From: an uncultured Gammaproteobacteria bacterium
GTDB taxonomy: Bacteria; Patescibacteriota; Microgenomatia; Daviesbacterales; UBA10151
Direction of reading: 5' to 3'
NCBI GenBank assembly: GCA_964523905.1
Contig: CAZFYQ010000004.1
Location: 31,535 to 95,534 of the forward strand
Length of the DNA: 64,000 nucleotides
Both the position numbers and the translations under genes were made by a program. Positions 3,159 to 56,000 of the stretch are shown in pieces (within the stretch, counting starts at the first letter, position 1; each line of letters starts with the position of its first letter). Under the pieces are notes generated by a model. It ran no database searches. It was not told the DNA's origin and saw only the letters and a list, made by a program, of their open reading frames with translations.

Positions 3159-4365
3159 ACAGCTGCTGTTATTTTTAACGATCTTTTTTCTTCCGACTCA
3201 ACTTGGTAAACATTTTTGGCCAAGTTTTTCTTTTATCTATTCTTTACCAATTGATTATCTATCCCCGGTAATTTATTTTTGGGATCTTTTGGCAGTAGTC
3301 TTATTTGTCACATTCTTAATTAACAAAGGTCAGATCAATAAACTGGCGCTTAATTTAGGATTTTTCTTTTTACTAACCCAAAGCGTGTCTTTACTTAGTA
3401 GTACCAATCCGGCAGCTGGGCTGGTTAGGTTGGAGCAATATTTGGTGGTGATATTTTTGGGAATTTATTTGGCATCAATCAAATTAAAGGTTTTTAAAAA
3501 GATTATTATGTGGGGATTAATTCTGGGAATATTAATAGAAGGAGTTTTGGCAGGGATTCAATTTATTACCGGTAGTACTGTCGGGCTTTGGATTTTGGGT
3601 GAAAGAAGTTTTACTATTTCTACTCCAGGAATTGCTAAATTTGATTTTTATAACTTCCACTTTTTAAGGCCCTATGGCACTTTTCCTCATCCCAATGTAT
3701 TAGCGGGGTTTATGATTATTGCCATCCTTATCATTGTCATCCTGAGGCGACTCGCCGAAGGATCTCTTACGAATGTAAGTTACTTTGCGACAGTTTTACT
3801 AGCTGGTCTAACGTTGTTACTGACAGTATCCCGAGTAGCGATAGTAGCTGGTGTTGGTTCAGCGCTCGTCACATTAAATAAAAAAGGCCGGATGTTTCTG
3901 CTTCTTTTGTTGTTGCTGCTTCTGCCGGTTTTGTATACCCGCTTTGCATCGGTGTTTAATTTCGATGTGATATCTTTAATAAGAAGAGAACAACAAATCG
4001 GCATCGCTTTTACTTTATGGACTAAGCACCCTATCTTTGGGGTTGGTTTAAATAATTTTATTATCTCGGCATCTGATCAGTTACTAGCCGGGCCGAGCAG
4101 ATTTCTGCAGCCGGTCCATAATATATTCCTGTTAGAACTAGCAGAAACAGGAGTTATTGGATTCATAGGTTTTATTGTACTAATTGGATATCCATTTCTC
4201 AAAAATTTCAAATTTCAAATTTCAAATTTCAAATTGCTTTGGTTCGTCATCCTCTTCCTGGGAATGTTTGATCATTACTTTTTAACCCTTCCCCAAGGAT
4301 ACCGAATGCTTTTTCTAGTATGGGGAATATCGATTAGTTCTCTTAAAGTAGAGGGAAAAAGCTAA
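3145..4365 (+). CDS. O-antigen ligase family (Wzy_C/WaaL-like) membrane protein
   Basis: About 10-12 TM helices; periplasmic loop with NIFLLELAETGVIGF typical of O-antigen ligases; contains an 8-bp tandem repeat near its 3' end. Confidence 0.7.
   Translation: MKKLEQLLLFLTIFFLPTQLGKHFWPSFSFIYSLPIDYLSPVIYFWDLLAVVLFVTFLINKGQINKLALNLGFFFLLTQSVSLLSSTNPAAGLVRLEQYLVVIFLGIYLASIKLKVFKKIIMWGLILGILIEGVLAGIQFITGSTVGLWILGERSFTISTPGIAKFDFYNFHFLRPYGTFPHPNVLAGFMIIAILIIVILRRLAEGSLTNVSYFATVLLAGLTLLLTVSRVAIVAGVGSALVTLNKKGRMFLLLLLLLLLPVLYTRFASVFNFDVISLIRREQQIGIAFTLWTKHPIFGVGLNNFIISASDQLLAGPSRFLQPVHNIFLLELAETGVIGFIGFIVLIGYPFLKNFKFQISNFKLLWFVILFLGMFDHYFLTLPQGYRMLFLVWGISISSLKVEGKS
3736..3766 (+). repeat. GC-rich hairpin motif gtcatCCTgagGCGActCGCCgaAGGatctc (family copy 1, inside CDS)
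   Basis: Shares 11-nt 5' flank gtcatcctgag and 10-nt 3' flank gaaggatctc with copy at 10345..10371; nested stems ATCCT/AGGAT and GGCGA/TCGCC. Confidence 0.5.
4203..4238 (+). repeat. 8-bp tandem repeat (aaatttca) x4.5 inside O-antigen-ligase-like CDS
   Basis: Read directly: aaatttcaaatttcaaatttcaaatttcaaatt; the unit length is not a multiple of 3. Confidence 0.8.
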
Positions 4366-6478: not shown

Positions 6479-9376
6479 GTGGACGAAACTGCCAAAGATA
6501 GCAACCAATTTAAACGTATTCTGCTTTCGCGAAACTCTCCAGTGGCCCTTGTGGTAGGTGCAGCCACTTTTTTAGGGTCTCATTTGGTAGATCGGCTTTT
6601 GGAAAAGGGTATCCAGGTGGTGGGAGTTGATAGTCTGGAATATGGTAAAAGATTTAACTTATCAAAGGCCTCTGAAAATAAACACTTCCATTTAATTATT
6701 GAAAAAACCAAGGACCTAAGTTTTGATTTGGAACGCTTAGATTATATTTTTGTTACCACTCCCAAAGAGATTAATTTAGATAGTATTTTAGAGCAGTTTA
6801 AAGAAAAAAAGTCACGTCTGCTATTTGTTTCCTCAATTGATTTATACAGTGAAGAAATTCCTACGTCTTTAAAATGGTTAAAAAAAGCTGAAACTCAGAT
6901 TGCCCAATTTGCTAATGAACATCATTTAAATGCCCGGATTTTAAGACTAGGTCCAGTCTATGGTCCGAGAATGAATTTTAGTAAAACCGATCCTATGTCT
7001 AAGTTAATTCAAAGTAGTTTAGAAGGCAGCTTACAAAAAGAAATGGCTTTGGATTTTTCTAGCCGAGCGCTGTATGTTGATGATGCAGTAGAGCTATTGA
7101 TTAAGTGTCTGTTTGCCGGAGCTACTTCCTTAAAGATTTTTGATGGAGTGTTGGAAACTCCGATTAAGGTTTCGGAAATTAAGCAAATTTTGCTTGATCC
7201 GATTTGGCATGAAAACCGCGGTTTTAAGCCGGAAGAGCTACCGCCTTGGCCAACTCCTAATTTAGAAAAAACCATTAAGGTGCTGCATTGGCATCCCAAA
7301 AGTGATTTGGTAGAAAGCCTTAAAAAAACTTTAAGTTATTTTAAAGATAATGAAATAAAACCAGAGGAAGAAGCTGATGATTTACCAAAGGCAACAGAAG
7401 AGGAGCAGTGGAAAATTAAAAAAGCAGAGGAGCTGGAAGGCCTAAAAGAAGGCAACAGGCAACAGGTAACAGGCAACAGTAAGCAAAAGGACCAGGAACT
7501 AAAAAAAATAGGGGAGCGGAAAAAATTTCCCAATTTATATCCCCGAATTATTTTATTTGTGGCTTTGGCTATTATAGCTTTCGGTCTAATTTTGCCAGCC
7601 TTGGAACTTAGTTGGGGAGTGTTAACTTTTAAATACCAATTAACTGCAGCAGTAAATCATTTGCAAAAAGGGGAGTTTGACCAAAGTTTAGCTTCAGTAC
7701 AGCAAGCCCAAAGCGGGGTAGGGGTGGCAGATCAGATTTTTTCCTCGTTAGATCCTCTTCGAAAAACTCACTTTTTAAATTCTCAGTTTGCCCTAGGGGA
7801 TAGTTTTGTGACTTTATCAACCTTGTCAGTAGACTGTGCCAAAAATACTATTTTGGGAGTGCAGCAATTATATTTGGCAATCAGAAGTGTGACAGGGGAG
7901 CTGCAAGATGATCCTAATCTATATTTTGACCAAGCTAAAGTTTATCTTGCTTCCTCAGACCAAGATTTATCCAAAGCCTTTGCCTTAATTAACAGCCCGG
8001 ATTTTAAATCCCAGGTGCCGGGATTTTTAAAACCCAATATCAGTAGTTTGCAGGATAAATTAAACAATTACTCAAAGTTGGTGCAAAAAGCCCGGGCCTT
8101 AAGTATTTTGCTGCCAGAGGCAATTGGTAAAGGGGATAAAAATTATCTGGTGCTACTTTTAAATAACAATGAGCTGCGCCCGGGCGGGGGATTTATTGGC
8201 AGCTTTGCCAAGGTCAGTTTTTCCGGCGGAAAACTTAAGAAACTAGCGGTTAATGACACTTATGCTATAGATGGTCAGTTAACTGGTCATGTTGAACCAC
8301 CTAAAGAAATTAAACAAATTTTGGGTCAAAAAGATTTCTTCTTGCGAGACTCAAATTGGGAGCCGGATTTTCCAACCAGTGCTAGACAAGCTGAGTGGTT
8401 TTATAACAAAGAAACAGGGGAGCAGGTTTCTGGTGTTGTGGCTTTGGATATTTCAGCAGTGGCGGATTTTTTAAGAGTGGTTGGTCCAGTGGAACTGGCT
8501 GATTATAATAATGAAAAAATTACCTCGGATAATTTATTTGAGCAAGCCATTACTCATGCTGAAGTGGGTTTTTTCCCTGGTTCTCAGGCTAAGAAAAGTT
8601 TTTTAACTTCTTTAACTCAAGGGTTATTAAATCAACTATTTTTCCTACCTAACCAAAACTGGCCGGGGATTGTCTCATCCCTAGGAGGCTCGATTGACGA
8701 GAGACATGTCAGTGTCTACTTAGATGATCCAACACTTTTTTCCTATCTGGTATCACAAGATTGGGCTGGGTTAATGCCGCGTCCTTCTGCCCTTCCATCT
8801 GATCAGCTGCAGGATTTCCTAGCACCGGTGGAAGCTAATTTAGGCGCTAACAAAGCTAATTATTATTTGGACCGCAGTTTAAGCTTGGCCACCACGGTTG
8901 GTAAAGATGGTGAAATTAAACAAACTTTAAGAATTGCCTATATTAATAGGAGCCCCTCAGATACTTTCCCGGCCGGAATTTACAAAAACGCCATGAGAGT
9001 TTATGTACCAATTGGCTCCACTTTGCAAAGTGCCAGCTGGGGCGAAAAAGATCTGACCCCGGATATTACTAATTTCACTGATTATGGCCGGTTAGGTTTG
9101 GATTTTTATCTGGAGCTGGCGCCCAAAGAACAGAAAACTTTAACAGTTACTTATCAGCTACCTAATAAATTAACTTTCATTGGTAACACGGCCAAGTATC
9201 GTTTGGATGTAATTAAACAAGCAGGAACCATAAAAGATCCCTTTACTTGGCAAATTACCTATCCTTTAAATATGAAGCTACTTAGTTCTGATCAAGGCCA
9301 AATTGCTCCGCAAGAGCAAACCATTCAAACTGATCTGTCTGTCAACCGCAGTTTTGAAGTCACCCTGACTAAGTAA
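6479..9376 (+). CDS. fusion protein: degenerate NAD-dependent epimerase/dehydratase-like domain + TM segment + DUF4012-like extracytoplasmic domain
   Basis: N-terminal VVGAATFLGSHLV (degenerate GxxGxxG) and VYGPRM (UDP-glucuronate decarboxylase-like); central TM (LYPRIILFVALAIIAFGLILPAL); C-terminal LLLNNNELRPGGGFIGSFA reminiscent of DUF4012. Confidence 0.5.
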   Translation: MDETAKDSNQFKRILLSRNSPVALVVGAATFLGSHLVDRLLEKGIQVVGVDSLEYGKRFNLSKASENKHFHLIIEKTKDLSFDLERLDYIFVTTPKEINLDSILEQFKEKKSRLLFVSSIDLYSEEIPTSLKWLKKAETQIAQFANEHHLNARILRLGPVYGPRMNFSKTDPMSKLIQSSLEGSLQKEMALDFSSRALYVDDAVELLIKCLFAGATSLKIFDGVLETPIKVSEIKQILLDPIWHENRGFKPEELPPWPTPNLEKTIKVLHWHPKSDLVESLKKTLSYFKDNEIKPEEEADDLPKATEEEQWKIKKAEELEGLKEGNRQQVTGNSKQKDQELKKIGERKKFPNLYPRIILFVALAIIAFGLILPALELSWGVLTFKYQLTAAVNHLQKGEFDQSLASVQQAQSGVGVADQIFSSLDPLRKTHFLNSQFALGDSFVTLSTLSVDCAKNTILGVQQLYLAIRSVTGELQDDPNLYFDQAKVYLASSDQDLSKAFALINSPDFKSQVPGFLKPNISSLQDKLNNYSKLVQKARALSILLPEAIGKGDKNYLVLLLNNNELRPGGGFIGSFAKVSFSGGKLKKLAVNDTYAIDGQLTGHVEPPKEIKQILGQKDFFLRDSNWEPDFPTSARQAEWFYNKETGEQVSGVVALDISAVADFLRVVGPVELADYNNEKITSDNLFEQAITHAEVGFFPGSQAKKSFLTSLTQGLLNQLFFLPNQNWPGIVSSLGGSIDERHVSVYLDDPTLFSYLVSQDWAGLMPRPSALPSDQLQDFLAPVEANLGANKANYYLDRSLSLATTVGKDGEIKQTLRIAYINRSPSDTFPAGIYKNAMRVYVPIGSTLQSASWGEKDLTPDITNFTDYGRLGLDFYLELAPKEQKTLTVTYQLPNKLTFIGNTAKYRLDVIKQAGTIKDPFTWQITYPLNMKLLSSDQGQIAPQEQTIQTDLSVNRSFEVTLTK
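7451..7478 (+). repeat. 7-bp tandem repeat (ggcaaca/ggtaaca) x4 inside CDS
   Basis: ggcaacaggcaacaggtaacaggcaacag read directly; encodes GNRQQVTGNS in a low-complexity linker. Confidence 0.75.
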
Positions 9377-20981: not shown

Positions 20982-21011
20982 TTGACAAGCAGATAAGTAC
21001 CCCGCTATAAT
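20982..21011 (+). promoter_or_regulatory. sigma70-like promoter TTGACA-N18-TATAAT driving the riboswitch leader
   Basis: Hexamers read directly at 20982..20987 and 21006..21011. Confidence 0.5.
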
Positions 21012-21014
21012 CAT

Positions 21015-21163
21015 TTTAAATCAAGAGTGGTAGATAGAGTATTGGCTCGTTAAGCTACCCAGCAACTGATTCGGCTAAGCCGAACACAGTGCTACACCCA
21101 ACCCGCAAGGGAGGATTTGGTCTTAATGACAAAAGTGAGCCTCCCTTTATGGGAGGTTTTTTG
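21015..21163 (+). promoter_or_regulatory. SAM-I (S-box)-like riboswitch candidate with intrinsic terminator and antiterminator
   Basis: aaATCAAGAGtGG.. (P1/J1-2), GGTAG..CTACC (P2), CAGCAAC (J2-3/P3), TTCGGC-taa-GCCGAA (P3), GTGCTAcaCC (P4 start), CCC-GCAA-GGG, P1 closing GATTT; terminator CCTCCC-tttat-GGGAGG-TTTTTT at 21140..21162; GGGAGG at 21109..21114 can pair with the terminator 5' arm. Confidence 0.55.
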
Positions 21164-21173
21164 TGGAGAAAAT

Positions 21174-21935
21174 ATGTTAGATAGAGATTTAGGTGACGGA
21201 CAATTAAATACAGATGCAATATTAAAAGCAACTAGGGGTACTACTGTAATTAGTGAAACCCTGCCTGTTTCTAAAGATTATTATATTGGTCCGGAGTCTT
21301 TTGAAAAAGGTTATCACAGACATTGGGGAACTCTAAGAAGGGTAAACAGCTTAGAGTTTTTTTTACTGACTGACCGGGATTTTTTTGATATTAATACAAT
21401 ATTTTCTCATCTGCCACGTAAATTAATAGAATTTTATCTAAGTTCAGAGGATAGAACGGATCAGGTAAGAATACTAGATGCGGGGGGCGGAAGGGATGGA
21501 AAGACTGCAAAAGAAATTGCTGGTAAATATTCTCAAACGCAAGTTATAAATGCTGACTTAGTAGCAATACCTGATATTGATAATAATTTTATTTCTATTA
21601 GAACCGATTTAGGTAATTTACCATTAGCAGAAGAATCAATTGATCTTGCATACTCACACCAAGTACTACCCTTCATGTTAAGTGAAAGATATCCGGATAA
21701 ACAACTGCAAGCAGTACAAGGAATTGTTCGGATATTAAAGCCAGGGGGAGTTGGTTTAATTGACTGGACAGATCAGCCAGCAGTGGGAGATGCTACCTTA
21801 AATGAAATAGAAGACTTTGGAGTGACAGTTATTCCCCAACAAAAAAGTTATGGTGGAGTATTTCTCTTTATTGCCAAAGAACCAGCTCAACCAGTTGTTT
21901 CATCAATGAGTTCCTATTTACAGATTCCAGCTTAG
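21174..21935 (+). CDS. class I SAM-dependent methyltransferase (start moved downstream of the riboswitch terminator)
   Basis: ATG 21174 preceded by GGAG SD; motif I ILDAGGGRDG, motif II DLAYSHQVLPF, motif III ILKPGGVGLI; the ORF-track start at 21117 would include the terminator hairpin. Confidence 0.65.
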   Translation: MLDRDLGDGQLNTDAILKATRGTTVISETLPVSKDYYIGPESFEKGYHRHWGTLRRVNSLEFFLLTDRDFFDINTIFSHLPRKLIEFYLSSEDRTDQVRILDAGGGRDGKTAKEIAGKYSQTQVINADLVAIPDIDNNFISIRTDLGNLPLAEESIDLAYSHQVLPFMLSERYPDKQLQAVQGIVRILKPGGVGLIDWTDQPAVGDATLNEIEDFGVTVIPQQKSYGGVFLFIAKEPAQPVVSSMSSYLQIPA

Positions 21936-22049
21936 GATTGAAATGTAGACTCGAAAATGGTATATTACTAGTGACCGAGTGGATGCCGACCCACAGGTAA
22001 TCAGTCCTGGCTTAAGCATTCTTCAGTTGTTTACCAACCTCGGTCTTTT

Positions 22050-22427
22050 TTATTTCTTTAACTTCTCATTAGTAAACTTAATAAGCTGATGAAGTTCAAT
22101 AGGTAATGTTTGTAGTTCGGCTAGAATGTATTCATATTGTTCTTTGGTTAGTAACTTTCTGATTCTTGATTTCTCATTCCAATCCAGGCTTTCTTTAGCA
22201 GAACCAAAACTATAGAAATAGAATTTAACTTTATCCTTTTTACCAAATCTGCCAAATCCCTCTGCGATATTAGCTGAAATTGAATCAATTGCAGTTACAA
22301 ATTGGAGTCCTACAGATTGCTTTTCAAACCATTGCCAGTTCATAACAATAGACCAGACATAATTTGAAAGTAAGAAAGCTCTTTTATAGCAGCTAATATC
22401 ATTTAACTTGAGGTATTTTTTATCCAC
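22050..22427 (-). CDS. four-helix-bundle protein (23S rRNA intervening-sequence protein family), GTG start
   Basis: DSISANIAEGFGRF and YSFGSAKESL, the family's two conserved helices; 125 aa. Confidence 0.65.
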   Translation of the reverse strand: MDKKYLKLNDISCYKRAFLLSNYVWSIVMNWQWFEKQSVGLQFVTAIDSISANIAEGFGRFGKKDKVKFYFYSFGSAKESLDWNEKSRIRKLLTKEQYEYILAELQTLPIELHQLIKFTNEKLKK

Positions 22428-22482: not shown

Positions 22483-23742
22483 TTAAGTGCCTTCGTTCCA
22501 GGAAGCTAGGTACTTTTTTTGATCGGCAGTTAAGATATCAATTTTAATGCCTAAGGATTCTAATTTAAGCTGGGCGATCATGTTATCTAGCTCTTTTGGA
22601 ACAGTATAAACCCCTGGTTTTAGTTGGCCTTTCTTTTCAAGTAGGTATTCTGCTGCAAAGGCCTGGTTGGCAAAGCTCATATCCATTACATCCGGTGGAT
22701 GGCCTTCAGCAGAAACTAAATTAATCAGTCTACCCTCTCCTAAGACAAAAACCTTTTTACCTCCGGGTAAAACTAGTTCTTCTAATTGATGTCTAAGCAG
22801 TCTTCTACTTTTGGCAATTTTAACCAGGCCATCATAATCAAATTCCACATTAAAGTGGCCGGTATTAGCCACAATTGCTCCGGGTTTTAGGTTTTTTAAG
22901 TCTGCTAAAGAAATAACAGATTTGTTACCAGTGGCAGTACAAATAATATCAGCCACCTTTACTGCAGAGGCAATTGGCATTACTTCAAATCCATCCATTG
23001 TAGCCTCCAAGGCCCGAACTGCATCTACCTCTGTGACAATTACTTGCGCCCCCATGCCTTTGGCCCGGGCAGACAGTCCCTTACCACACCATCCATAACC
23101 TACCACTACAAATTTCTTGCCGGCCAACAGAACATTAGTGGCCCGGATAATTCCATCAACAGTTGATTGTCCGGTGCCGTATCTATTATCAAACATGTGC
23201 TTAGTATCAGAATCATTAACCGCTACTACTGGGATTTTTAAAGTACCGTCTTTTAACATGGCCCTAAGTCTAATCACTCCGGTGGTAGTTTCTTCAGATG
23301 AACCAATAACCTCTGTTAATTGAGATTTTCTTTCAGTATGCAAAAGAGTTACTAAGTCTGCTCCGTCATCCATAGTAATTTGGGGATGAAAATCCATTAC
23401 CTGATTTAAGTGTTTATAATAGGTATCTTTATCTTCTCCGTGAATGGCAAAAGTAGGGATATCATAGTCAGCCACCAGTGAAGCAGCCACTTCATCCTGA
23501 GTAGACAGCGGATTGGAGGCACAAAGAACCACATTGGCACCACCAGCTTTTAAAGCAATGACTAAGTTGGCGGTTTCAGAGGTAACATGTAAACAAGCAG
23601 CTAAGGTAATTCCTTTAAGTGTCTTTTCTTTTTCAAAGCGTTTTTTAATTAGCTCTAACACTTTCATCTGAGAGCCGGCCCATTCAATTTTTAATTTTCC
23701 GGCTTTGGCCAGTTTTAAATCTTTAACATCACTCTTTATCAT
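22483..23742 (-). CDS. ahcY: adenosylhomocysteinase (SAH hydrolase)
   Basis: 419 aa; NAD-binding VVVGYGWCGKG, HFNVEFD, C-terminal KLKLESLGIKID. Confidence 0.9.
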   Translation of the reverse strand: MIKSDVKDLKLAKAGKLKIEWAGSQMKVLELIKKRFEKEKTLKGITLAACLHVTSETANLVIALKAGGANVVLCASNPLSTQDEVAASLVADYDIPTFAIHGEDKDTYYKHLNQVMDFHPQITMDDGADLVTLLHTERKSQLTEVIGSSEETTTGVIRLRAMLKDGTLKIPVVAVNDSDTKHMFDNRYGTGQSTVDGIIRATNVLLAGKKFVVVGYGWCGKGLSARAKGMGAQVIVTEVDAVRALEATMDGFEVMPIASAVKVADIICTATGNKSVISLADLKNLKPGAIVANTGHFNVEFDYDGLVKIAKSRRLLRHQLEELVLPGGKKVFVLGEGRLINLVSAEGHPPDVMDMSFANQAFAAEYLLEKKGQLKPGVYTVPKELDNMIAQLKLESLGIKIDILTADQKKYLASWNEGT

Positions 23743-24671
23743 AGGTTAATTTGTTCTCCAAAATTCTCTTTATATCTGTCTGAGAATTCTTGGACGGTAA
23801 ATCTATGTGATGTTGTACCATAATTTTCCACTGCATAACAAGATGCAATTGCGCCCATTTGCCCGCAGATTTTTAAATCAAAGTTTTTAGATAGTCCTGC
23901 TAAAAATCCGGCCCGATAGGCGTCTCCGGCTCCAGTTGGATCAACCACCTGTTTTGGTTTTGCAGCTCTCACCTCAATAGTTTGATCTTTGGTTTGAATA
24001 ACCGATCCCTTTTCTCCTAGGGTTGTAATAACTATTTTGGCATTTTCCAAAAGATTTGCCATTTGCCATTTGAGTTTTGACATTAGAAGTTCTACTTCGT
24101 AATCATTGCCAATTAAAATTTCTGCTCCCTTAATCATCATTTCTAAATCCTCTTTTTGCAAGCGGGGTAGTTGCATGCCCGGATCCATCATATATTTAAT
24201 TCCTTTTTCCTGACATTGGTTGGTAAAGGCAGTCATGGCAGCAGGATCATTAGGAGAAATTACTACCATTTCCGAAGTTCCATCTATTAATAAAGAAGAG
24301 TTATCTTTCATGGCTCCGGGATAAAAAGCCGTGATTTGATTATCTGATTGATCAGTCATAATAAAAGCAGAAGAGGTTGACTCATCAGGGATTATTTTAA
24401 TTTTTGAGATATCAACACCAGACTGTTCTAAAAATTTTCCGTACTGCGAAAAATCATTACCAACAGCGCCCACAATAGAAACAGGAGTTTTTAACAGCCC
24501 TAAGTTATAGGCAATGTTTCCAGCAGTGCCACCTTTTTGTTTGTTTAAAGTATTAACTAAAAAAGATAAATTAATTTGATGAATTTTATCCGGCATAATA
24601 TGGTCGCCAAACTTCCCTGGAAAATCCATAATAGTGTCATATGCAAGTGAGCCGGTAACAGTAATCATCAT
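23739..24671 (-). CDS. PfkB-family carbohydrate/nucleoside kinase (adenosine kinase-like by context)
   Basis: GGTAGNIAYNLGLL and DPTGAGDAYRAGFLAGL (PfkB signatures); overlaps ahcY start by 4 nt. Confidence 0.75.
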   Translation of the reverse strand: MMITVTGSLAYDTIMDFPGKFGDHIMPDKIHQINLSFLVNTLNKQKGGTAGNIAYNLGLLKTPVSIVGAVGNDFSQYGKFLEQSGVDISKIKIIPDESTSSAFIMTDQSDNQITAFYPGAMKDNSSLLIDGTSEMVVISPNDPAAMTAFTNQCQEKGIKYMMDPGMQLPRLQKEDLEMMIKGAEILIGNDYEVELLMSKLKWQMANLLENAKIVITTLGEKGSVIQTKDQTIEVRAAKPKQVVDPTGAGDAYRAGFLAGLSKNFDLKICGQMGAIASCYAVENYGTTSHRFTVQEFSDRYKENFGEQINL

Positions 24672-53418: not shown

Positions 53419-54121
53419 ATATGATGTAAACATCAAGGGCGTGGGATTGCCAGCCTGATGTATGAGCGTCGGGGAAGCCGACATCAATCATATTACCCCT
53501 AACACCACCACCAACATCTCCTGCTACAGCCACACCATATCCTGGAATATACAGTTTAGTGCCTAAAGGGATGACTGATGGATCAACTGCAATTACACCT
53601 TTGCCTTGATGCATGCCTGTTGCAGTCCAGTCATTACAGCCCAGACAATGAGAATCATACTGAGTGGCCCAAACATGGAGCTTTTTCCAGTACTGGATAG
53701 AACCATCTGGAGTATCTAAATCCCGCCAAACAATTTTGGTACCGCGGGAAATTTTTTTATCCTTTGCTTCTGTAGTATCAACTGAAATTACCTCTTTACT
53801 ATAAACTTGTCCATCTTTGGTATAGGTAATTTTGACAGTTTTTATGGTTTTACCATCTTCGCCTTCATCTAATACAGTTTCAGTTCCAGCTTCAGTTTCC
53901 GGGTCATCTTGATAGACTGTTTTTTTCGGTATTACCTCTGTTTCGGTTTCCACCTTTTCTGTAAAAGAAGACTGAGTAGTAATTGGTTGAGTGACTGGTA
54001 AAGTATCCGTTGGGGTTGGAGCATAATCAGCCAAGACCACTGGGGTTTGCCAAAAATATTTGACTAAAAAAGTGACGGCCAAAAGTAAGATAATGCCGAA
54101 ATAGCGTTCCAGCTTATACAT
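53411..54121 (-). CDS. 3D-domain protein with G5-like domain (MltA/YabE-like cell-wall protein)
   Basis: WATQYDSHCLGCNDWTATGMHQGKGVIAVDPSVIPLGTKLYIPGYGVAVAGDVGGGVRGNMIDV (3D domain), upstream G5-like KITYTKDGQVYSKEVIS. Confidence 0.65.
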   Translation of the reverse strand: MYKLERYFGIILLLAVTFLVKYFWQTPVVLADYAPTPTDTLPVTQPITTQSSFTEKVETETEVIPKKTVYQDDPETEAGTETVLDEGEDGKTIKTVKITYTKDGQVYSKEVISVDTTEAKDKKISRGTKIVWRDLDTPDGSIQYWKKLHVWATQYDSHCLGCNDWTATGMHQGKGVIAVDPSVIPLGTKLYIPGYGVAVAGDVGGGVRGNMIDVGFPDAHTSGWQSHALDVYIISN

Positions 54122-56000
54122 TTAACCAATCCTCCTTATCAATTATCTCAACATCTTCCAGCAAACTATCCTGATCTCGGAAATTGGTGTTGCCATCAAT
54201 TAAAGTTTCCGGAATATCAGCTAAAAACCGTGAGACTAGATTATTTGATCTGCTACCAAAAAAAAGCCGTGTTCTGGTATAGGTTAAATATAACTTTTCT
54301 TTAGCCCTGGTAATTCCCACATAACAAAGTCGTCTTTCTTCTTCCAGTTCATTAGGATCCAGCATTGAGCGTGAGTGAGGAAACAGTCCTTCCTCCATGC
54401 CTGACATAAATACTACAGGAAATTCCAGGCCTTTAGCGCTATGCAAAGTCATTAATGTTACTGCATCCTGGTCGAGTTTCTTCCGCCCAGGAGCATCTGC
54501 TGCCTCTACCAAAGCGACATTTTCCAAAAATTCAGTTAATTTCGGAAATTCCTCTGCCACCGAGCGCAGTTCTTTAACATTTTCCATACGATTAATACCC
54601 TCTTCTGTTTTATCATCCAAATATTCCATATACCCGGTTTTTTCTACCACCAAATCCATTAGCTCTAAACTGGTGTATTGATCCAGCTTACCGGCTACTT
54701 CAATATAAATATCCATTACGGCTTTTAGCCGAGCTTTACCGATTTTTTCCGCTCTTTTTAAAGCTACGGAATCCTCCGGATTTTGTAGCAGCCGTAAATA
54801 GCACAGTACATCTTTAATTTCTTTTCTTTGGTAAAACGAAGTGCCGTCCACTAATTTATAAGGCACGCCACTTTTTAAAAATTGTTCTTCCAAAGAGCGA
54901 GACTGGGCATTGGTGCGGTATAAAATAGCGTAATCGGAAAGTCGGGTTTGATCAAGCTGAGACAAGATAAAAATGGCTTCTTCTACCTCGTTTCTGGTTT
55001 CTACTGCCTGAATTTTTGCTCCGGCATCCTTATCAGTCCATAATTTTAAAACCGGATGGGATTTATTTTTGGAAATCACCCCATGAGCCGCATCTAAAAT
55101 TGTTTGAGTGGAGCGGTAATTTTGTTCTAGGCTAAAAACTTTAGTGCTGGGGTAATCTTTTTGAAAATTTAACATATTACGATAATCAGCGCCCCGGAAT
55201 TTATAAATTGACTGCGACATATCTCCCACCACACAAATATTTTGATGGCGTTTGGCTAGATATTTAGAAATTAAATATTGGGCAGGATTAGTATCCTGGT
55301 ATTCATCAATTAAGATATAGCGGAATTGAATTTGATATCTGGTTAAAGTTTGGGGGCTAACTTGAAATAACTTAATGGTTTTTAAAAGCAAATCATCAAA
55401 ATCAACCGCCTTATTTTTTTCCAGGATTTTTTGATATTCCAGGTATATTTTTGCCACAGTTTCCTGAAAATAGCCCCGGGCATATTGCGGATATTCCATA
55501 GCGGAAATCAGTTCATTTTTGGCACCGGAAATAGTGGTTCTAACAGAATGAGGAGAAGTTTTTTGAATCGGAATATTTAAATTATTCATCGCTTCTTTGA
55601 TCACATCCATGGCGTCACCCTCATCGTAAATCGCAAATCCCGGAGGCAAGCCGATTTCTCCGCCATCCTTTCGAAGGACTTTTGCGCAAAAACTATGGAA
55701 AGTTCCCATTAGTGGTAGTTGGTAGTTAGTAGTAGGTAGTTCGGAGTTAAGTAACTTGAGAATACGGTTTCTCATTTCTCCGGCGGCTTTGTTAGTAAAC
55801 GTCACCATCAGGATATTTTCTGCGGGAATTTGCTTTTCTTTGATCAGATAAGCTACCCGGTAAGTTAAGACGCGAGTTTTTCCAGAACCAGCTCCAGCCA
55901 GGATCAAAATTGGTCCATCTGTGGCCTTAACCGCCTCTTGTTGAGCGGGATTTAAATCGTCCAAGAGACTTGTACTGAGCGTACTCGAAGTAGCAGACAT
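54114..56000 (-). CDS. uvrD: UvrD/PcrA-family ATP-dependent DNA helicase
   Basis: Walker A AGAGSGKTRVLTYR, IDEYQDTN, GTFHSFC, TLHSAKGLEF, 628 aa. Confidence 0.85.
   Translation of the reverse strand: MSATSSTLSTSLLDDLNPAQQEAVKATDGPILILAGAGSGKTRVLTYRVAYLIKEKQIPAENILMVTFTNKAAGEMRNRILKLLNSELPTTNYQLPLMGTFHSFCAKVLRKDGGEIGLPPGFAIYDEGDAMDVIKEAMNNLNIPIQKTSPHSVRTTISGAKNELISAMEYPQYARGYFQETVAKIYLEYQKILEKNKAVDFDDLLLKTIKLFQVSPQTLTRYQIQFRYILIDEYQDTNPAQYLISKYLAKRHQNICVVGDMSQSIYKFRGADYRNMLNFQKDYPSTKVFSLEQNYRSTQTILDAAHGVISKNKSHPVLKLWTDKDAGAKIQAVETRNEVEEAIFILSQLDQTRLSDYAILYRTNAQSRSLEEQFLKSGVPYKLVDGTSFYQRKEIKDVLCYLRLLQNPEDSVALKRAEKIGKARLKAVMDIYIEVAGKLDQYTSLELMDLVVEKTGYMEYLDDKTEEGINRMENVKELRSVAEEFPKLTEFLENVALVEAADAPGRKKLDQDAVTLMTLHSAKGLEFPVVFMSGMEEGLFPHSRSMLDPNELEEERRLCYVGITRAKEKLYLTYTRTRLFFGSRSNNLVSRFLADIPETLIDGNTNFRDQDSLLEDVEIIDKEDWLNV

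Follow-up and report, generated by a model that had tools for sequence, protein, structure and literature searches.

Introduction

The S-box regulon of Bacillus includes methionine-salvage genes, and two further classes of S-adenosylmethionine (SAM) riboswitches, SAM-I/IV and SAM-IV, place helix P4 outside helix P1 and carry an extra pseudoknot in place of the SAM-I periphery. The SAM-I (S-box) class itself is already known in Firmicutes and about eight other phyla (PMC3766115), and in the ubiG-mccBA operon of Clostridium acetobutylicum, which an S-box controls through an antisense RNA, a generic SAM-dependent methyltransferase feeds the flux from SAM through S-adenosylhomocysteine (SAH) to homocysteine (PMC2258182). 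Our literature search retrieved nothing on SAM riboswitches in the candidate phyla radiation (CPR)/Patescibacteria, and nothing linking riboswitches to DUF62/SAM hydrolases. Here we analyse a 64,000-nt stretch of patescibacterial DNA (contig CAZFYQ010000004.1, positions 31,535 to 95,534; hereafter the window), in which positions 21015–21121 are likely to form a divergent SAM-I aptamer in the leader of a single-gene transcription unit, shutting off a SAM-dependent methyltransferase at high SAM. Both the SAM-I class and its mechanism are well known, and the interest of this locus lies in its conserved non-standard kink, in having been missed by annotation and in its link to a SAM-turnover module. 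Unless indicated otherwise, all coordinates refer to the plus strand.

Identification and architecture of the aptamer

Covariance-model search with the Rfam SAM-I family (RF00162) revealed a full four-way junction at 21015–21121, aligned over model positions 1–108 with a score of 35.0 bits, and demonstrating E-values of 1.7e-6 in the local search and of 3.9e-4 when all 4227 families were searched against both strands of the whole 64-kb window. It was the sole match of the SAM clan in the window, and RF00162 was the best model of this clan. The score of the window copy lies below the RF00162 gathering score of 44.4 bits, and the aptamer was seen only with permissive E-value reporting. Leave-one-out analysis with a clade-specific covariance model (R1), made from the leaders of relatives only with the window copy left out, gave a single match in the window, at exactly 21015–21121 (91.5 bits, E ~6e-24). 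The first-pass annotation of this DNA had assigned the leader to the SAM-I type; its landmarks were all found in place when the sequence was re-read, and the assignment is borne out by the significant full-length match and by orthologous leaders that exceed the Rfam gathering score. The minimum free energy (MFE) fold of positions 21015–21176, calculated with RNAfold, contains P1, P2, P3, P4 and a downstream terminator (−49.4 kcal/mol, z = −2.9 versus shuffles), and both this fold and the model alignment place the four-way junction within P1.

Helix P1 is formed by UUAAAUC (21016–21022) and GAUUUGG (21114–21120), with core closure of AAATC (21018–21022) by GATTT (21114–21118), and retains the A-U/U-A pairs adjoining the ligand site. 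The P1 and J1/2 segment reads ATCAAGAGTGG (21020–21030). Helix P2 (21029–21059) comprises P2a (GGUAG/CUACC; arms GGTAG at 21029–21033 and CTACC at 21055–21059), P2b (GAG/CUC) and loop L2 (UAUUGG), while P3 (21061–21093) harbours the ligand-site internal loop (AGC-AA-CUG ... CAG-U-GCU) and a distal hairpin (UUCGGC-UAA-GCCGAA, 21070–21084), with the landmark CAGCAAC at 21060–21066. The motif GTGCTA (21090–21095), previously taken for the start of P4, is in reality the 3' strand of P3, bearing the ligand-site U and G. Helix P4 is minimal (CCC-GCAA-GGG, 21102–21111), with 3 bp and a GNRA loop; it has 3–4 bp in relatives and is longer in the Rfam consensus, so the window aptamer loses RF00162 score at this position, and the low score is explained by the minimal P4 together with the non-standard P2 internal loop. 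The ligand-site nucleotides, namely J1/2 AAGAG, the P3 loop GCAAC...GGUGC and the tandem A-U/U-A pairs of P1, are all present. The core strings AUCAAGAG, GCAAC, GUGCU and GAUU align to upper-case positions of the RF00162 consensus and are invariant among relatives, and the aptamer is predicted to bind SAM. Finally, UUGG in L2 (21042–21045) is complementary to CCAA in J3/4 (21098–21101). This complementarity is invariant in 6/6 full aptamers, both sides being constant and hence displaying zero covariation; it is consistent with the L2–J3/4 pseudoknot, albeit short of proof.

The first-pass annotation had suggested that the leader may represent a variant subtype. The window element is a divergent variant rather than a textbook SAM-I riboswitch, with its score under gathering, its P2 loop not a standard kink turn (k-turn) and its gene association atypical. 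It does not belong to SAM-IV or SAM-I/IV: P4 is located inside the junction, between P3 and the 3' strand of P1, the L2 and J3/4 partners are present, and RF00162 outscored the other models of the clan.

A conserved non-standard internal loop in P2

The 3+6 internal loop of P2, composed of AUA (21034–21036) and GUUAAG (21049–21054), replaces the standard k-turn GGA/NNUGAN. In k-turn terms, the pairs are A.A at 1b.1n, A.U at 2b.2n and G.A at 3b.3n: the G at 1b is lost and a U occupies 2n, with the 3+6 size and the A-minor adenines A1n and A2b being kept. A standard k-turn, namely a 3-nt bulge followed by G.A and A.G pairs, is thus not found in the window copy. The deviation of this region had been recognized before, and the same deviation occurs again in another lineage. 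The AUA/GUUAAG loop is identical in the leaders of two related contigs, L008 and L009, whereas the canonical GGA/NNUGAU is found in L003, L013 and L006. Since the L008 and L009 proteins are only ~47% identical to that of the window, and their leaders are not the same as the window copy in P1, P3 and P4, the recurrence of the same odd loop favours selection over decay.

In the Thermoanaerobacter tengcongensis riboswitch, substitutions at 2n and 3n are tolerated, with tertiary contacts stabilising the kink, and disruption of 1b.1n by A1nC abolishes SAM binding (PMC3651934); replacement of the k-turn by a pk-turn weakens binding ~1000-fold (PMC3672288). Non-standard simple k-turns mostly alter one G.A pair, most commonly at 2b.2n (PMC5061560), which makes a conserved natural variant with both pairs altered unusual. 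No description of such a double-pair variant was found in a non-exhaustive literature search.

Orthologous leaders and compensatory changes

The same leader precedes the methyltransferase gene, or the operon containing it, on other contigs, at least eight of which are independent. The leaders of L003, L004 and L005 (54.1 bits with RF00162) and of L013, located on a 1.15-Mb contig (45.6 bits), are above the gathering score. Those of L008 and L009, which share the P2 loop of the window, reach 42.9 and 40.2 bits, respectively, and that of L006, with a 62-nt insertion in P3, reaches 38.0 bits. Contigs L001, L002, L007, L010 and L014 start inside the aptamer and continue with P4, the P1 3' strand, a linker hairpin and a terminator; R1 also recognises such 5'-cut copies.

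As the MAFFT alignment mis-registered P4, hand-anchored segmentation and a model-guided alignment were used instead. The hand-anchored alignment revealed two-sided compensatory changes at 4 pairs: P1 pair 4 (A-U in the window, U-A in L013 and L006), P2a pair 2 (G-C versus A-U among leaders), P2a pair 4 (A-U versus G-C among leaders) and P3b pair 2, where the window alone has U-A (U21067-A21088) and every relative C-G. In the model-guided alignment, 93.1% of pair cells held standard pairs, compared with 24–43% when the partners were slid by 1–3 columns; 5 pairs varied on both sides, and the covariation score was matched in 2/500 shuffles. Obtained from 6 sequences in an alignment fitted to the model, this covariation is supportive, not decisive.

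Promoter, expression platform and translation start

The leader lies downstream of a sigma-70-type promoter (20982–21011) consisting of TTGACA (20982–20987), an 18-nt spacer and TATAAT (21006–21011). In agreement with the first-pass annotation, it matches the consensus at 12/12 positions, being the top candidate of the 2-kb region scanned, and TTGACA is also found upstream of every related leader. Judging by the promoter position, transcription would start at ~21017–21019.

The aptamer is followed by an intrinsic terminator (21137–21162) with the stem GAGCCUCCC/GGGAGGUUU, whose core CCTCCC-TTTAT-GGGAGG (21140–21156; UUUAU loop in the RNA) and T6 tract (21157–21162; U6) are present as had been claimed. 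Its stem has a stability of −14.7 kcal/mol (RNAfold/RNAduplex analysis), and every related leader bears an equivalent terminator. A terminator scan reported this hairpin on the minus strand alone, which appears to be a tool artefact of the palindromic stem: RNAfold extends the plus-strand stem by G-U/A-U pairs into the U-tract, which would break the tail rule of the program.

The best upstream partner of the terminator 5' arm is AGGGAGGA (−11.8 kcal/mol, RNAduplex), which covers the P4 3' strand, J4/1 and the first bases of the P1 3' strand and includes the GGGAGG (21109–21114) previously proposed as the sequestering sequence. When P1 was disallowed and the terminator 3' arm made unavailable, the constrained fold likewise gave an antiterminator, in which AAGGGAGG (21107–21114), covering the last two bases of L4, the P4 3' strand, J4/1 and the first base of the P1 3' strand, pairs with CCUCCCUU (21140–21147), the helix being extended by AUUU/AAGU. 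This design, an S-box attenuator with a terminator and an antiterminator drawn from the 3' side of the aptamer, is repeated in L006 (−10.5 kcal/mol) and L010 (−10.3 kcal/mol). Between P1 and the terminator there is a linker hairpin, GUC-UUAAU-GAC (21120–21130). A hairpin directly 3' of P1 also occurs in every related leader, including those of L003, L006, L008 and L013, its position being kept rather than its sequence or size (GGAUCGAAAUUUCGAUC in L013). ON-switch logic was rejected: as terminator and aptamer share no bases, a bound ligand would be unable to keep the terminator from forming, which points to OFF rather than ON.

The proposed mechanism is as follows. With SAM bound, P1 (21016–21022/21114–21120) and P4 would be locked and GGGAGG 21109–21114 occupied; the hairpin 21137–21159 with its U6 could then form, and transcription would end before the ATG at 21174. 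When SAM is scarce, AAGGGAGG would pair with CCUCCCUU, blocking the terminator and allowing the methyltransferase mRNA to be completed.

The gene under this predicted control (21174–21935) encodes a class I SAM-dependent methyltransferase of 253 amino acid residues, confirmed as such by its Pfam Methyltransf_11 domain (E = 1.4e-7). Its Shine-Dalgarno sequence GGAG (21165–21168) is located 5 nt before the ATG, and GGAGAAAAUAUG at this region is kept in L003, L008 and L009. The N-terminus MLDRDLG is common to 12/12 homologues and aligns at ATG 21174, identifying this codon as the true start, in line with the first-pass annotation. Two alternatives, the ORF-track start TTG 21117 (272 aa) and the start ATG 21126 of the database protein P0001 (269 aa), were rejected, both reading through the terminator and disagreeing with the N-termini of homologues. 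The family is rare, with 13 clusters among 5.8 billion proteins. The structure was predicted with a pLDDT of 72, and Foldseek/PDB and PDB sequence searches retrieved generic class I methyltransferases only, hence no substrate was assigned. A profile search of genome contigs yielded only distant proteins (28–30% identity), in a Peregrinibacteria metagenome-assembled genome and a gammaproteobacterial one, with no SAM match nearby, and a metagenome scan recovered one locus, L013.

Gene neighbourhood

The window represents ordinary chromosome of ~38% GC, encoding GroEL, a class I aminoacyl-tRNA synthetase, TsaD, UvrD and SbcC. Convergent with the methyltransferase gene, the minus strand carries the adenosylhomocysteinase gene ahcY (22483–23742; TIGR00936, 602 bits), adjoined by a PfkB kinase gene, pfkB (23739–24671, minus strand). 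The same convergence with ahcY-pfkB is found in L002–L004 and in a JGI contig with extended synteny. In L002, L003 and L004 the methyltransferase gene and ahcY overlap by 4 nt (1155–1158, 4114–4117 and 3342–3345, respectively), so that any transcript reading through under riboswitch control would run antisense to ahcY. The two genes are kept apart in the window by an inserted four-helix-bundle (23S rRNA IVP family) gene of 378 nt (22050–22427, minus strand).

A promoter-like sequence, TTGAAA-17-TATATT with an upstream TG, occurs at 21938–21966, after the methyltransferase stop codon, followed by a hairpin, GACCGAG...CUCGGUC with U6, at 21973–22051 (−23.7 kcal/mol, z = −1.96). This hairpin could be a small RNA (sRNA) or merely a bidirectional terminator of the convergent genes; the 21938–22051 element was not found in the other loci.

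In L006, L007 and L010, the aptamer precedes a SAM_HAT (SAM hydroxide adenosyltransferase/SAM hydrolase, DUF62; PF01887/PF20257) gene (811–1605, 91–885 and 100–885, respectively), with the methyltransferase gene immediately after it in the same operon. In four lineages, a small acidic protein of 59–76 aa (39–52% identity), with a GWPPED-like C-terminal motif, is encoded between the terminator and the methyltransferase gene (L002 197–376, L016 51–230, L014 189–419 and L015 3–122); no Pfam match to it was recorded in the look-up tables. A tblastn search of the window for SAM_HAT or the small acidic ORF found neither.

Three further observations concern features elsewhere. The only gathering-threshold Rfam match in the window is RF03531 (n00280, "C. 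difficile sRNA included into helicase gene") at 54271–54365 on the minus strand (65.3 bits versus a cut-off of 65.2). Its position inside a UvrD/PcrA-type helicase ORF (54114–56000) makes conserved coding sequence, and not a separate sRNA, the most likely source of this match. A 965-aa protein (6479–9376) combines DUF4012 with an N-terminal epimerase-like segment, and the related contigs carry many PIN and DUF433/DUF5615 genes. Along with sample names suggestive of aquifers, these features give a hint, and no more, of a CPR/Patescibacteria-like origin.

Discussion

Several points weigh against a functional SAM-I OFF switch at 21015–21121. No SAM match is obtained in the window under Rfam gathering thresholds (35.0 versus 44.4 bits). 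Only 3 nt separate the end of the −10 box (21011) from the modelled aptamer, and P1 in the real transcript may therefore be limited to 5–6 bp; the P1 of relatives is likewise short, with 4–5 contiguous pairs. A clear antiterminator is limited to the window, L006 and L010; L003, L008 and L013 form the corresponding helix less strongly, the thermodynamically best partner of their terminator 5' arm lying elsewhere. Given A at 1b and U at 2n, the affinity of the window aptamer could be low or lost. Finally, repression at high SAM of an enzyme that consumes SAM is physiologically counter-intuitive unless this enzyme serves salvage.

The kink in particular raises the prospect of a relic, a SAM-I descendant that no longer binds SAM, its leader being merely a constitutive or otherwise-controlled attenuator. 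Loss of the critical 1b.1n G.A pair, with A at 1b and U at 2n, the minimal P4 and the sub-threshold Rfam score would fit such a relic, as would the loss of binding caused by A1nC in the model riboswitch (PMC3651934). However, non-standard k-turns fold in the model riboswitch with the help of tertiary contacts (PMC3651934), and the window copy keeps A1n and A2b, a loop of 3+6 nt, both pseudoknot partners and all the ligand-site nucleotides; its own P1 and P3 contain compensatory pairs; and the AUA/GUUAAG loop persists in L008 and L009 despite a protein identity of ~47% and different P1, P3 and P4. We therefore regard decay as unlikely. Retention of the fold with an altered ligand, for instance SAH, (R)-SAM (the inactive sulfonium epimer) or a different adenosyl-sulfur compound, would fit the atypical regulon (the methyltransferase, SAM_HAT in L006, L007 and L010, and the adjacent ahcY and pfkB), and DUF62/SAM_HAT enzymes prefer (R)-SAM (bioRxiv 10.1101/2025.08.29.672840; PMC12120602). 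Yet the consensus positions of the SAM pocket are unchanged (P1 AUC...GAU, P3 GCAAC...GUGC, J1/2 AAGAG), relatives exceed gathering on the ordinary SAM-I model and zero substitutions point to a new specificity, so a different ligand appears very unlikely.

The neighbourhood allows another arrangement, in which riboswitch control would be aimed mainly at the convergent ahcY-pfkB operon, with read-through giving an RNA antisense to ahcY or causing transcriptional interference, and the methyltransferase being secondary. The 4-nt convergent overlap in L002, L003 and L004 leaves no room for a terminator, and an S-box-controlled antisense RNA has a precedent in C. acetobutylicum (PMC2258182). In the window, however, the 378-nt gene and the U-tract hairpin (21973–22051) intervene before ahcY, and L006, L008 and L010 keep the riboswitch though ahcY is not adjacent, which leaves the methyltransferase as the constant partner and makes an ahcY-directed role highly improbable. 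An accidental likeness between an AT-rich leader and the S-box consensus, for which the sub-threshold score might speak, was ruled out for practical purposes by the E-value of 3.9e-4 in the window, the orthologous position on at least eight independent contigs, the R1 match (E ~6e-24) and the covariation, and deserves virtually no credence.

A divergent SAM-I aptamer acting as an OFF switch on the methyltransferase thus remains the preferred interpretation, and the genes found with it bear on the physiological objection. Across loci, the regulon consists of SAM-turnover proteins, not methionine biosynthesis. Speculatively, the methyltransferase is probably part of a SAM/methionine recycling module with ahcY, pfkB and, in relatives, the SAM hydrolase. 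OFF control would make sense if their role were to recover methionine and adenosine from SAM that the cell cannot use, a situation that would parallel the methionine-salvage genes of the Bacillus S-box regulon. Two salvage routes are known for (R)-SAM, the inactive sulfonium epimer: its selective cleavage by DUF62 hydrolases, and homocysteine methyltransferases (bioRxiv 10.1101/2025.08.29.672840; PMC12120602). A more specific proposal, which we consider doubtful, is that low levels of active (S,S)-SAM turn on a dedicated SAM repair/recycling module in which a hydrolase selective for (R)-SAM and a novel family of methyltransferases work with AhcY and an adenosine kinase. If true, such a low-SAM repair module would bring cofactor damage control into the S-box regulon.

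Two more general consequences follow from the locus. Functional-looking SAM-I riboswitches of poorly sampled lineages escape the curated Rfam thresholds and can be recovered by synteny together with a clade model. Moreover, the P2 loop offers a natural, conserved test case for k-turn biology, with both G.A pairs altered and the A-minor adenines kept; mutagenesis data suggest that such a change would be harmful at 1b.1n. The leader also ties a rare methyltransferase family to SAM sensing, and in relatives this link reaches a SAM hydrolase and a small acidic protein; it provides a handle for placing all three in SAM/methionine recycling.

Comparison with known systems

Like the SAH riboswitch (RF01057) found upstream of ahcY, the window element would represent RNA control in a SAM-cycle neighbourhood. 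The SAH riboswitch differs in its fold, its ligand and its ON-switch behaviour, and the ahcY of the window lies on the opposite strand, not downstream of the aptamer; Rfam searches at gathering and permissive settings found no SAH riboswitch in the window. With SAM-I/IV (RF01725) and SAM-IV (RF00634), members of the same clan (CL00012), the element shares the ligand core and departures from the SAM-I periphery, including the k-turn. The S-box antisense system of C. acetobutylicum (ubiG-mccBA) resembles it in linking SAM-I to a generic methyltransferase operon and in the convergent geometry (PMC2258182), but there the riboswitch controls an antisense RNA and the operon is on at high SAM, whereas the window has a sense leader with the opposite predicted logic. 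The closest relationship is with SAM-I (RF00162) itself, represented by the leaders of Bacillus subtilis yitJ and T. tengcongensis metF. These share with the window the P1–P4 junction and the ligand-site strings, the L2–J3/4 complementarity and the 3+6 P2 loop, and a 3' part of the aptamer competing for the terminator 5' arm, with OFF logic predicted for the window. The window differs in a P4 cut to 3 bp and a GNRA loop, in a non-standard P2 loop and in a score below gathering; its target is a SAM-dependent methyltransferase, joined in relatives by a SAM hydrolase, rather than methionine/cysteine biosynthesis or transport.

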